Assembly: GCA_025463765.1 (NCBI GenBank)
Contig: JAODBC010000003.1
Span: 2,383-66,382 of the forward strand
Direction: 5' to 3'
Source: Subtercola sp.
Lineage (GTDB): Bacteria > Actinomycetota > Actinomycetes > Actinomycetales > Microbacteriaceae
DNA: 64,000 nt
Positions 34,760 to 38,158 of this stretch are shown here, piece by piece. The stretch's first letter is position 1. Each line of letters begins with the position of its first letter. A model generated the notes under the pieces. That model made no database searches and was not told where the DNA came from. It was given only the letters and a program-made list of their open reading frames with translations. Position numbers and translations under genes: made by a program.

Positions 34760-34803
34760 CCGCCTCGCGCGACCCGCCAGAACCGGCCCGAATTGAACTG
34801 ACC

Positions 34804-34841
34804 GATACACCTCAGAAACTGCCGCGAAACAGGCACGAAAC
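34804..34841 (+). promoter_or_regulatory. Four 11-bp-phased GlnR-like boxes
   Basis: GATAC-N6-GAAAC-N6-GAAAC-N6-GAAAC. Confidence 0.7.
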
Positions 34842-34855
34842 CGGTCGGCCTTAGA

Positions 34856-34875
34856 TTGAACTGAACAATTCACTT
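34856..34875 (+). promoter_or_regulatory. Palindromic operator, putatively for the TetR, overlapping -10 TAGATT
   Basis: TTGAACTGAACAATTCACTT; 19/20 identical to the reverse complement of 38086-38105; weaker copy at 34793-34810. Confidence 0.75.
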
Positions 34876-34905
34876 TCTTGTTCCCTCCAATCGCAAAGGA
34901 CGACC

Positions 34906-36024
34906 ATGAACCCGAGCCCTCCCCTCTCCCGTCCGTTCGACCGCCGTCAGTTCTTGAGATTCGCGGGCCTCGGCGGCGCTGCCATCGGTGGGGCCGCCGT
35001 GTTGGCCGCCTGCTCGACAGGCAGCCCGGCCTCCACTGCATCGACGGCCGCCGCCGCGGCCTCCGGCAGCTTCGGAACCATCGGCCTCGCCCTGAGCTGG
35101 ATCAAGAACGTCGAGTTCGCCGGTGAATACTTCGCCACCGAGAAGGGCTATTTCACGAGCGCCGGCTTCGACGAGGTCACCCTGCTCGCCGGCGGAGGCC
35201 AGACCTCACCGGTCGAGACCGTGGTCAGCGGTCAGGCACTCGTCGGATTGGTGGCCGACGGCAGTCAGGTCGGAGCATCCGTTTCGCAAGGCGCACCGAT
35301 CAAGATCATCGGCGCGCACCTCGTGAAGAGCGCGAGCTGCCTGCTTTCGCTGCAGGAGAAGACGCCGATCAAGACCCTCGCCGATGTGAAGGGCAAGAAA
35401 ATCGGGCTTCAGGCGTCGGTGATCCCCGAATTTCAGGCACTGCTCGAACTCAACGGAATGACGATCGACGATATCGAGGTCGTCACCGTTCAATACGACA
35501 TCGCTCCCCTGATCTCGGGTGCGTGCGACGCGTTCTGCTCTTTCGCAACGAACGAGCCACTGATCGCCGAAGGAGACGGCTACACCCCCGTGATCATGTA
35601 CTTCGCCGACTACGGTCTGCCCTTGGTCGGCGACGCCATCATCGCGACCGAAGACACCATCAGCAGCAAGCGTGACCTGCTGAAGGCGTTTTTGAAAGCC
35701 GAATCACAAGGCTGGGCCGATGCGATCAACGACCCGGCCCAGTCGGCGACCTACGCCGTCACGAAATACGGCGCCGATCAAGATCTCAACCAAGACCAGC
35801 AGGTCGCCGAGATCAAAGCGCAGAGCGCGTTGATGGTCGACGCCGATGTGCTGAAAAACGGTCTGCTCACGATCACCGACGACCTCATCGCCGGCAATGT
35901 GAAGGCTATGGTGGCGCTCGGTTACACCGTGACCGCCGATATGTTCGATCTCAGCCTGCTGAACGAGGTGTACAGCGAAAACCCCGGCCTCATCGTGAGC
36001 CTGCCGATCGCAACCACCAGCTGA
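34906..36024 (+). CDS. Tat-exported lipoprotein, NMT1/THI5/SsuA-like ABC substrate-binding protein
   Basis: DRRQFLR Tat motif, LAAC lipobox, LSWIKNVEFAGEYFA, FATNEP. Confidence 0.88.
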   Translation: MNPSPPLSRPFDRRQFLRFAGLGGAAIGGAAVLAACSTGSPASTASTAAAAASGSFGTIGLALSWIKNVEFAGEYFATEKGYFTSAGFDEVTLLAGGGQTSPVETVVSGQALVGLVADGSQVGASVSQGAPIKIIGAHLVKSASCLLSLQEKTPIKTLADVKGKKIGLQASVIPEFQALLELNGMTIDDIEVVTVQYDIAPLISGACDAFCSFATNEPLIAEGDGYTPVIMYFADYGLPLVGDAIIATEDTISSKRDLLKAFLKAESQGWADAINDPAQSATYAVTKYGADQDLNQDQQVAEIKAQSALMVDADVLKNGLLTITDDLIAGNVKAMVALGYTVTADMFDLSLLNEVYSENPGLIVSLPIATTS

Positions 36025-36050
36025 GCCGAAAGGTCACTAGCCTGACAGCT

Positions 36051-36626
36051 ATGGGAGATCGCAAGAACGAACGACAAAGGCTCCTCGCTCTGGTCGGAGA
36101 TGTGATCCTTGTCGAAGGTGTCAGCAACCTCAGCCTGAGCGGAGTAGCCCGCTCGATCGGCTCCAACAATCGCATGCTGCTGTACTACTTCGGTTCGAAA
36201 GAGGAGCTGCTGGCCGAGGCCGCCTTGGAGGTCTTTCGCCGGTTTCCGCGCATTCGCACCATGACGGCAGGGCTGGTCGGCGAGTCACCACTCGCCGATC
36301 GGCTCGTCGCGGCCTGGCTTGCGCTCAGCCACCCCGACAACCTGCCGTTTCTGCGGTTGTTCTTCGAGACCTTCGGCGTTGCGTCACACGCTCCCGAACA
36401 GAATCAGTCGCTCTTGAGCACCATGGGCACGAACTGGGCGGATGATCTGAACAACGCACTGCGGGCAGACGGCCTCAGCGAGACCGACGCACGGATGCTC
36501 GCTGTGCAGATCTTGGCCTTGTGGCGCGGTCTGCAGTTCGACCTCGTGCGGGGCACTCCTCACGAGGTGCTCGACGCCGCGCATCCACTGGCGATCAGGG
36601 CGCTGCTTGCGCCGTACGGCAAGTAG
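36051..36626 (+). CDS. TetR family regulator
   Basis: LSLSGVARSIGSNNRMLLYYFGSKEELL. Confidence 0.9.
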   Translation: MGDRKNERQRLLALVGDVILVEGVSNLSLSGVARSIGSNNRMLLYYFGSKEELLAEAALEVFRRFPRIRTMTAGLVGESPLADRLVAAWLALSHPDNLPFLRLFFETFGVASHAPEQNQSLLSTMGTNWADDLNNALRADGLSETDARMLAVQILALWRGLQFDLVRGTPHEVLDAAHPLAIRALLAPYGK

Positions 36627-36687
36627 CCGCCTCGATTGCTCGCGGTAATCGCGGCTACGAAGCGGCTAACGAGCGGCTGACGAGTGA

Positions 36688-38040
36688 CTATCCGCGGCGG
36701 AATCGGGCTCCGGGGTGAGCATCCGGCAGCAACTTCTTGCCCTCGCCGAAGAGTTGTTCGCGCAGAGTCGTTCCGGTCGGGGCGTCTTTAATCAGGCCGC
36801 GCTTGCGCAGCTCGGGCATCACCTTTTCGAAGAACACGTCGTGCGACCCGTCGGACTCCGGCTGCACGAGCAGCCCGTCCGCGCCTGTCTCTTCGAGCAG
36901 CGCGACGGCCTGATCGACGGCCTCTTCGGCCGTACCGAGAAACGGCTTGCCCATCACGCCGTTGGCGCGGAATTCCGTGAGAATCTCACGCACGGTCGGC
37001 GCGTTCGGGCCCAAAAAGCGCTCGACGTTCGTGCGGCCGTTGTCGGAGTTCGCAGCGGATTCGGGAATCGGCTTGTCGAAGTCGAGCGAGAGCAGGTCGA
37101 TTCCGGTGAAGTATGCGTACAGCGTCGCGGCGTGCTCGAGGGTGACCGACTCGGTGACCGCCTGATGATCGGCTACCGCTTGCTCGTGAGTGTCAGCCAC
37201 CCGGAAGGTGCCCGCGATGAGGCACTTCACGGCATCACGCCCGCGCCCGTTCTCTTCGGCGAGCCGCTTGATGTCAGAGATCTGGTCGGCGAGAGCCTGG
37301 GATTCAGCCGCGAGAAAGACCGCCTCGGCGTACTTGGCCGCGAGCGCGCGACCGGGGGCCGACGCGCCCGCCTGAAACAGTGTCGGCGTCACCTGCGGGC
37401 TCGGCGGCGTGACCAGCACACCCTTCGCCGAGAAATAGGGCCCGTCGTGCTCGATCTCGTGCACCTTCGTGGGGTCGGCCCAGGTTCCCGTCGCGCCGTC
37501 GTGCTTGAACGCGTCGCTCTCCCAGCAGCCTTCCCAGTACTTCAGCGACAGCTCGACGTGATCGTCGGCCTTCGCGTACCGGTCGTCGTGCGGCATCAGC
37601 GGCTCGCCGAACAGCAGCGCCGAGCCGGCCTGCCCCGACCCGGTCACGATGTTCCAGCCGATGCGGCCCTTCGTGAGATGGTCGAGCGTGCGGTACTGCC
37701 GGGTCACGATCGGCGGCTTCTCTACCGTCGTCGAGATGGTCGTGACCAGCCCGAGTGAGGTCGTGACCGAGGCCATTGCCGACATGAGCATCTGGGCATC
37801 CACTGTCGAGAACTGCACGTTGCGCTCGATCGACGTGGGGATGATCGATCCGTTCAGTGTCGGATACCCGTACGAGTCGGCGAGGAACAAGAAGTCGGCG
37901 CCGGCCGCCTCGCACTTCTTCGCGAGGTCGGTCCAGTAGTCGAGGTCGGTGAAGTTCGCATCGGTCTCCCGGCCCGCCATCTTCCACGTGGGGCGCACTC
38001 CCCCGGTTTGAAACATTCCGATGGTGATCTTCTGGCTCAT
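36688..38040 (-). CDS. NtaA/DmoA family FMN-dependent monooxygenase (second copy)
   Basis: DFLFLADSYG, TLDHLTKGRIGWNIVT, FQAGAS, PELRKRG. Confidence 0.92.
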   Translation of the reverse strand: MSQKITIGMFQTGGVRPTWKMAGRETDANFTDLDYWTDLAKKCEAAGADFLFLADSYGYPTLNGSIIPTSIERNVQFSTVDAQMLMSAMASVTTSLGLVTTISTTVEKPPIVTRQYRTLDHLTKGRIGWNIVTGSGQAGSALLFGEPLMPHDDRYAKADDHVELSLKYWEGCWESDAFKHDGATGTWADPTKVHEIEHDGPYFSAKGVLVTPPSPQVTPTLFQAGASAPGRALAAKYAEAVFLAAESQALADQISDIKRLAEENGRGRDAVKCLIAGTFRVADTHEQAVADHQAVTESVTLEHAATLYAYFTGIDLLSLDFDKPIPESAANSDNGRTNVERFLGPNAPTVREILTEFRANGVMGKPFLGTAEEAVDQAVALLEETGADGLLVQPESDGSHDVFFEKVMPELRKRGLIKDAPTGTTLREQLFGEGKKLLPDAHPGARFRRG

Positions 38041-38085
38041 GTCTTCTCTCCCGACTCGACACCTCGGCGCGACGCTGTGCGCTAG

Positions 38086-38105
38086 AAGTGAATTGATCAG
38101 TTCAA
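38086..38105 (-). promoter_or_regulatory. Palindromic operator, putatively for the TetR, overlapping -10 TAGAGT
   Basis: Minus strand TTGAACTGATCAATTCACTT. Confidence 0.75.
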
Positions 38106-38120
38106 CTCTAGCCAGACCAT

Positions 38121-38158
38121 GTTACGGCCGTGTATCGCCGTCGCACACGCCGTGTTAC
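38121..38158 (-). promoter_or_regulatory. 11-bp-phased GlnR-like boxes
   Basis: Minus strand GTAAC-N6-TGTGC-N6-GATAC-N6-GTAAC. Confidence 0.62.

Follow-up and report, generated by a model that had tools for sequence, protein, structure and literature searches.

The three genes considered here lie in a 64,000-nt stretch of Subtercola sp. DNA (the window; contig JAODBC010000003.1, positions 2,383 to 66,382), where they form two convergent transcription units, each with a palindrome and an array of GlnR-type boxes at its promoter. The first unit starts with the gene for an NMT1/THI5-like substrate-binding lipoprotein (SBP; 34906-36024, + strand) of 372 aa, which has a Tat motif (DRRQFLRF) and a lipobox (LAAC). 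It is followed after 27 nt by the gene for a 191-aa TetR-family regulator (36051-36626, + strand), the putative repressor of the operators O1 and O2 and of a further site on contig C105, all described below. The gene for LLM1, an NtaA/DmoA-family FMN-dependent monooxygenase of 450 aa (36688-38040, - strand), converges on these two. LLM1 matches TIGR03860 (NtaA/DmoA) over its full length at 379 bits, above the curated cut-off of 279.7. The N-terminal helix-turn-helix of the TetR matches PF00440 (26.8 bits; cut-off 24), and its block RSIGSNNRMLLYYFGSKE is conserved, with 14 of 18 residues invariant among eight orthologues; the best PDB relative of the regulator is weak (E 7e-7). Subtercola vilae DB165 is the closest named relative; its TetR has 74% identity to that of the window. 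An unrelated NYN/LOTUS gene lies upstream of the region. An earlier note on this DNA had placed the TetR gene between two convergent units, had taken the three genes to encode an SBP, a TetR and an NtaA/DmoA-type monooxygenase, and had found no permease, ATPase or flavin reductase gene adjoining them. The gene layout confirms the first and last of these points, and Pfam and TIGRFAM profiles, together with the signal and lipobox of the SBP, confirm the gene identities.

The promoters of the SBP gene and of LLM1 share an unusual architecture. The array at the SBP promoter (34804-34841, + strand) consists of GATAC at 34804 and GAAAC at 34815, 34826 and 34837, with n6 spacers and hence an exact 11-bp period, in the positions known as a1-b1-a2-b2. 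The array at the LLM1 promoter (38121-38158, - strand) consists of GTAAC (38158-38154), a degenerate TGTGC, GATAC (38136-38132) and GTAAC (38125-38121). The proximal pentamer of each array is separated by exactly 10 nt from a -10 hexamer, TAGATT for the SBP gene (34852-34857, + strand) and TAGAGT for LLM1 (38105-38110, - strand). Three phased pentamers occur in the 64 kb at these promoters only, as does the combination of two pentamers, N10 and TAnnnT, with 0.00 matches expected in either case. A sigma-70 scan found no full promoter, and no -35 element is recognizable at either promoter. We take this to mean that the -35 is missing, not that the promoters are, which fits activator-dependent promoters.

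Directly at the -10 hexamers lie the palindromes, as the 20-mers TTGAACTGAACAATTCACTT (34856-34875, + strand) and TTGAACTGATCAATTCACTT (38106-38087, - strand). Their 16-bp palindromic cores are termed here operator O1, TGAACTGAACAATTCA (34857-34872), which covers the predicted SBP transcription start, and operator O2, TGAACTGATCAATTCA as read on the - strand (38089-38104), at the LLM1 promoter. The two promoter cores form the longest inverted repeat of the region. The earlier note had described near-identical palindromes that overlap a TAGA(T/G)T -10 and are preceded by pentamers at an exact 11-bp period. This holds, down to the 20-mers themselves, with two refinements: the 16-bp core overlaps the -10 in the SBP promoter, by one shared T, and abuts it in the LLM1 promoter, and one of the four LLM1 pentamer positions is degenerate. 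With up to three mismatches allowed, the operator pattern has six matches in the window, compared with 0.17 expected. One such match, TGAACTGACCGATACA (34794-34809, + strand), has an intact left half-site and three mismatches overall, and it overlaps the distal GlnR box. It is a possible auxiliary TetR site of uncertain status; the closest relative lacks the SBP promoter and hence offers no counterpart for comparison. Another three-mismatch match, within the coding sequence of the TetR (36443-36458), was attributed to chance.

What protein is likely to act at the arrays? The GlnR element has been described as a1-b1-a2-b2, a series of gTnAc/GaAAC sites that bind four protomers head-to-tail, with b2 downstream of the -35 (PMC10235972). 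The consensus for Mycobacterium smegmatis GlnR is Gn2AC-n6-GnAACA, with the AC-n9-AC spacing being essential (PMC3662644). Taking the definition of a GlnR-dependent promoter from these two studies, the arrays at 34804-34841 and 38121-38158 both have two to four gTnAc/GaAAC pentamers in a head-to-tail 11-bp register with AC-n9-AC spacing. The assembly that was scanned, a soil metagenome bin (4.32 Mb, 65% G+C, 118 contigs, 88% completeness), encodes one clear GlnR orthologue (C55:122099-122791, - strand). Among sequencing runs searched for this DNA, no RNA run matched, and the only strong match was to a soil metagenome, probably the one from which the DNA came. The PDB matches of the GlnR orthologue include 8hih (E 1.2e-78), 8hig (7e-70) and 4o1h (“Transcription regulator GlnR”; 8e-26), and it matches MtrA and RegX3 chains at only 1.7e-23; among the OmpR-type regulators of the genome, the PDB search covered this one.

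The same boxes are found at the core nitrogen genes of this genome. The glnA promoter reads GTAAC-n6-GAAAC-n6-GACAC-n6-GTAAT-n10-TATGCT, that of nirB GTTAC-n6-GCAAC-n6-GAAAC-n10-TAGCGT, and that of glnN (type III glutamine synthetase) GTCAC-n6-GAAAC-n6-GCCAC-n10-TATATT. Upstream of amtB, four sites are in phase but the hexamer at n10, GAAGCT, is weak, so that the N10-TAnnnT spacing is kept at three of the four canonical nitrogen genes. The spacing is also distinctive genome-wide: the pattern GnnA(C/T)-n6-G(A/T)(A/T)A(C/T)-N(x)-TAnnnT has 16 matches at x = 10, compared with 0 to 6 at each x of 6-9 and 11-14. These 16 include glnA, nirB, two aminotransferase genes, an amidohydrolase gene, three genes for NMT1-type SBPs, and the genes for LLM1 and LLM2, a second NtaA/DmoA monooxygenase described below; the remaining six lack an obvious nitrogen link or an identified downstream gene. 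Matches to a two-box pattern fall disproportionately outside genes, with 37 of 69 in the ~19% of the genome that is non-coding. Given the boxes and the spacing common to the SBP and LLM1 promoters and to glnA, nirB and glnN, the arrays are, as judged from sequence, no different in kind or in placement from the element found at core nitrogen genes.

These data also bear on an alternative, namely that the pentamers serve another OmpR/PhoB-type regulator (MtrA, or a PhoP/RegX3-like protein) and that the module scavenges sulfur or phosphate. The genome encodes 13 OmpR-type regulators, MtrA- and PhoB-like proteins among them, and similarities to NtaA/DmoA, SfnG/SsuD and SsuA are typical of sulfur-starvation regulons. 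Moreover, MtrA is reported to modulate the GlnR-controlled nitrogen regulon of M. smegmatis (PMC13718301). Nevertheless, this alternative is unlikely, given that the same boxes lie at glnA, glnN, nirB and amtB, with the n10 spacing at three of these, and that aminotransferases, amidohydrolases and deaminase-linked transporters predominate among the genome-wide matches. In addition, no sulfur or phosphate genes are linked to the module, and scores with the SsuA and SsuD models fall far short of the cut-offs.

If GlnR acts at the arrays, it could also repress or fine-tune, with expression driven mainly by the loss of TetR binding. We regard this as improbable. Each array precedes its -10 and has its proximal box between the -35 and -10 positions, and a -35 element is absent. 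The activating amtB complex is arranged in this way (PMC10235972), and glnA and nirB, which are usually activated, share this layout here. The SBP and LLM1 promoters resemble the amtB GlnR complex (PDB 8HIH; PMC10235972) in having four 11-bp-phased gTnAc/GaAAC sites, a proximal site downstream of the -35, and a weak -35. They differ from the 8HIH promoter in the fusion of a repressor operator to the -10 and in the presence of GAAAC at three of the four SBP sites.

Several other loci with GlnR-type boxes were observed. At C69:57533-57587, upstream of a gene for a class-V aminotransferase, GTAAC-n6-GAAAC is followed after 10 nt by TATACT and then by a different imperfect palindrome, TGAAACACCTGATTCA; to judge from this promoter, the combination of GlnR boxes with a local operator may be used with other repressors too. 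At C90:37979-40642, a four-box array (GTTAC, GAAAC, GAAAT, GCAAC) is followed after 10 nt by TACCGT, without a palindrome, and precedes genes for a 424-aa protein with no Pfam match and an NtaA/DmoA paralogue that is 48% identical to LLM1. On C80, a third gene for an NMT1-type SBP has GlnR-type boxes in front of it and an ABC ATPase gene behind it (31165-33221), and an amidohydrolase gene (40088) lies behind further GlnR-type boxes. Within the window, an intergenic GAAAC-n6-GAAAC pair (51974-51989, - strand), upstream of a region with an NAD(P)HX dehydratase gene, is possibly due to chance. The window also encodes an OmpR-family response regulator of 242 aa directly after an 840-aa ORF (40022-43269, - strand). 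This regulator is not GlnR, and the two may be a KdpDE-type pair.

The palindrome is rare in the genome. There are only three exact copies of the 16-bp sequence TGAACTGA(A/T)CAATTCA (scanned for as TGAACTGAWCAATTCA) in the 4.3-Mb assembly, each at the promoter of a gene with a linked function. Two are at the SBP and LLM1 promoters, and the third precedes the ATG of LLM2 by 28 nt, on contig C105. LLM2 matches TIGR03860 at 391 bits (cut-off 279.7), is 30% identical to LLM1, and has nitrilotriacetate monooxygenase as its nearest solved relative. Its promoter has the same composite structure, with GAAAC-n6-GAAAT, 10 nt, TAGTGT, 2 nt, and then the palindrome. A two-mismatch match at C44:30817 was set aside as chance, being inside a coding frame and having no promoter features. 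The earlier note had expected a scan for the palindrome to reveal permease, ATPase and reductase genes. The scan of the assembly did reveal a third regulon member, LLM2, and it found no operator before a permease, ATPase or flavin reductase gene; in particular, neither operator nor boxes were found at a flavin reductase homologue (C90:123187-123648) where both were looked for. A further NtaA/DmoA paralogue, 45% identical to LLM1, is encoded within the window (16859-18205, - strand).

Does the palindrome belong to the TetR? Orthologues of the regulator are patchily distributed, being present in 11 of 150 sampled genomes of the family. A degenerate form of the operator pattern was found in all 11 TetR-positive genomes, compared with 36 of the 139 TetR-negative ones (one-sided Fisher test, 1e-6, which overstates the support because kin are not independent). 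At each of the orthologous loci that were inspected in other genera, the TetR gene has the palindrome beside it. The half-site also varies with the subtype of the regulator: TGAACTG dominates at loci with a TetR of the window type, and TGAACCG dominates at loci with a paralogue-type TetR, where TGAACTG was never seen. Thus, the palindrome has the properties of a TetR operator in that it adjoins the regulator gene, overlaps the target promoter and is co-inherited.

The promoter design is conserved well beyond Subtercola. A scan of public genomes yielded 80 related loci from several actinobacterial orders. These loci are from Microbacteriaceae (Microbacterium, Cryobacterium, Frondihabitans, Planctomonas, Amnibacterium, Rathayibacter, Glaciihabitans, Herbiconiux and Naasia) as well as from Kineococcus, Gordonia, Nakamurella, Pseudonocardia, Streptomyces, Frankia and Acidimicrobiia. 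The common order is operator, ATPase, permease, permease, NMT1 SBP, adenosine deaminase, (monooxygenase), TetR, operator, monooxygenase, LLM1-type monooxygenase, (flavin reductase). The operator-controlled set in relatives includes a full ABC importer, adenosine deaminase, two or three NtaA/DmoA-like monooxygenases, and flavin reductase. Among 51 oriented operator promoters, 47 have a TAnnnT at -1 to +4 nt from the palindrome and a GnnA(C/T) pentamer exactly 10 nt upstream of this hexamer, compared with 0.09 for shuffled upstream sequences. The next pentamer, at n6, is also present in 44 of the 51, and the proximal box is GAAAC in 35. The LLM1 promoter of Subtercola vilae has the same first three boxes as that of the window, with GAAAC in place of the proximal GTAAC, and two of the four intervening stretches are clearly different; Pseudonocardia promoters have GCAAC-n6-GCAAC with the 10-nt spacing.

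Some additional matches were noted in relatives. Extra exact operator matches are found at G104:2037726 and G083:2334793, with a control pattern giving 0-1 matches per genome. Another palindrome, TGAACCATGTGGTTCA, is present in exact form in five or more genera of the family (genomes G019, G024, G063, G083 and G146) and is probably a conserved site of another, related regulator.

It could be argued that the palindrome is the site of another regulator, or of none, and that the neighboring TetR controls different genes: the two are matched only by their proximity, 36 of 139 genomes that lack a close TetR orthologue have the degenerate pattern, and the TetR's own promoter has no operator. This is improbable. 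No regulator gene other than that of the TetR is conserved in the cluster throughout the 80 loci, the operator adjoins this gene in 39 of 51 TetR-type loci, the half-site varies with TetR subtype (CTG versus CCG), and a 16-bp dyad is a typical size for a TetR-family operator.

The TetR gene itself is predicted from sequence to have its own conserved leaderless promoter. The hexamer TAGCCT (36038-36043, + strand), the predicted -10, lies 7 nt before the ATG, and a TAnnnT is found 6-8 nt before the TetR start codon in 17 of 21 relatives, at exactly 7 nt in 14. A TAnnnT this close to a start codon is a signature of a leaderless actinobacterial transcript. Given such a promoter, the TetR would not simply be the distal gene of the SBP operon, and production of the repressor would not depend on GlnR, although read-through from the SBP promoter might add to it. 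This promoter, the third regulon member and the conservation across orders all extend the earlier note.

We consider it probable that the SBP, LLM1 and LLM2 promoters are dual-input promoters of a nitrogen-scavenging regulon, controlled by GlnR and the TetR together. The earlier note had proposed activation by GlnR and repression by the TetR, and all parts of this proposal that computation can check hold. Under nitrogen limitation, the orphan OmpR-type regulator GlnR would bind the 11-bp-phased GTnAC/GAAAC pentamers head-to-tail. The proximal pentamer, at about -27 to -23, would stand in for the missing -35, with GlnR recruiting RNA polymerase. A TetR dimer, supplied from its own leaderless promoter, would occupy the palindrome TGAACnGAnCnnTTCA at or just after the -10, where it would cover the predicted starts at about 34865 (+ strand) and about 38097 (- strand) and block initiation. 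A substrate-derived ligand would release the TetR, such that expression would need both nitrogen hunger and substrate, as in an AND gate. The targets in this genome would be the exported NMT1-type binding lipoprotein and two NtaA/DmoA flavin-dependent monooxygenases. With less certainty, the module probably imports a nucleoside-like or aminopurine/pyrimidine-like compound and frees its nitrogen by deamination and oxidative C-N cleavage.

How might an SBP function without an adjacent translocator? In this genome, the importer-type genes of the module, permease and ATPase, are found only at a paralogous locus on contig C99 (locus L026; 3417-14752) that has its own TetR paralogue, 40% identical to the TetR of the window. 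On one side of the TetR paralogue are genes for an amidohydrolase of the nucleobase/nucleoside-deaminase type, a Cupin_5 protein and an NtaA/DmoA monooxygenase that is 39% identical to LLM1. On the other side is an operon for an SBP (60% identical to that of the window), an ABC ATPase, two permeases, a uridine-phosphorylase-like protein, a nucleoside hydrolase and an adenosine deaminase. GlnR boxes in the box-N10-TAnnnT layout also precede the C99 SBP gene, and the only palindrome of the locus is a variant, TGAACCAAATGGTTCA, before the monooxygenase gene. The orphan SBP of the window may use the C99 translocator. Orphan SBPs recur in this system: in Frondihabitans (L072) and Microbacterium sp. 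P07 (L139), operator-controlled genes for an NMT1 SBP, adenosine deaminase and monooxygenase have no permease or ATPase gene within 6-kb flanks.

The substrate is the least certain part of this picture. It is probably a nucleoside-like or aminopurine/pyrimidine-like nitrogen compound rather than a sulfonate, as suggested by the genes for adenosine deaminase, nucleoside hydrolase, nucleoside phosphorylase and a deaminase-like amidohydrolase, by the likeness of the SBP to ThiY and of LLM1 to RcaE, and by low scores for SsuA, SsuD and RutA. The linked adenosine deaminase scores above the TIGR01430 cut-off, and among solved structures the SBP is closest to the pyrimidine-binding protein ThiY (3ix1). 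For LLM1, the nearest solved relative is the riboflavin lyase RcaE (PDB 5W48; 338 bits over the full length), a moderate similarity that fits a paralogue rather than an orthologue. The rca cluster includes genes for riboflavin kinase, ribokinase and flavin reductase. No rca-type genes turned up among the genes examined or in related loci, although no search was aimed at riboflavin kinase or ribokinase, and unlike in the rca context, the apparent partners of LLM1 are adenosine deaminase and an NMT1-type ABC importer. The parallel with RcaE of Microbacterium maritypicum lies in the chemistry, since this FMN-dependent enzyme oxidatively cuts the C-N bond between a sugar-like chain and a heterocycle (PMC12746152). 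Other assignments were rejected. The SBP scores only 44.8 bits with the model for aliphatic sulfonate SsuA (TIGR01728; cut-off 163.5), LLM1 and LLM2 score 49 bits with that for RutA (TIGR03612; cut-off 498), and LLM1 scores far below the cut-off for SsuD.

The regulatory principle, a GlnR activator with a TetR-type local repressor, is already known, whereas the pathway controlled here is uncharacterised. A comparable arrangement exists in the E. coli rut operon, which combines NtrC activation with the TetR-family regulator RutR and encodes the luciferase-like pyrimidine monooxygenase RutA and the flavin reductase RutF. Both systems appear to be nitrogen-regulated and TetR-gated, and to use a luciferase-like flavin monooxygenase and a flavin reductase to free nitrogen from a heterocycle. 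They differ in that the rut operon uses sigma-54 with NtrC, whereas the promoters here would use sigma-A with GlnR. The window TetR is not identifiable as RutR, which is not among its PDB matches. Another parallel is the urea carboxylase cluster of M. smegmatis (msmeg_2184-2189), where GlnR as activator and the TetR-type regulator AmtR as local repressor have been shown experimentally (PMC4222082). As in that actinobacterium, a global nitrogen-starvation activator would be joined to a TetR-family repressor of a small scavenging regulon. However, the operator here is TGAAC-n6-GTTCA rather than the AmtR box, monooxygenases and an NMT1-type transporter take the place of urea carboxylase as targets, and the operator is fixed directly after the -10. 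AmtR as the identity of the window TetR was likewise rejected: AmtR structures exist in the PDB, no AmtR chain is among the PDB matches of the window TetR at E<=1e-3, and its operator differs from the known AmtR box. A literature search for GlnR together with nitrilotriacetate or luciferase-like monooxygenases, or with monooxygenases and ChIP-seq, found nothing.

Several points weigh against a nitrogen-scavenging regulon under GlnR and TetR control. First, what was observed are sequence motifs, with their statistics and conservation, and the identities of genes, and from these we infer protein binding, the direction of regulation, the inducer and the substrate. The substrate in particular is deduced from gene neighborhoods in other genomes and from the paralogous locus. 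Second, NtaA/DmoA and SsuA-like families are often encoded by sulfur-starvation genes, and MtrA, which is reported as a modulator of the GlnR-controlled regulon (PMC13718301), could also use these sites. Third, one box of the LLM1 array is degenerate, and the window SBP has no adjacent translocator in an assembly that is only 88% complete. Fourth, related genomes are not independent, meaning that counts across them overstate the support.

What does the operator mark outside this genome? We suggest, tentatively and as something that may well not hold, that it marks a widespread, uncharacterised island of Actinomycetota (NMT1 ABC importer, adenosine deaminase, two or three RcaE/NtaA-like monooxygenases, flavin reductase and TetR). 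Such an island could obtain nitrogen from nucleosides or modified purines and pyrimidines by a new route, through oxidative C-N cleavage, under an AND-gate promoter kept across orders. With the operator, members of the regulon can be sought easily in any genome, and inducers can be screened. The conserved gene set draws attention to RcaE-like monooxygenases that appear to be tied to nitrogen starvation. The promoters themselves would be a precise design for joining a global nitrogen signal with a substrate signal, with a fixed spacing that is kept across several actinobacterial orders.

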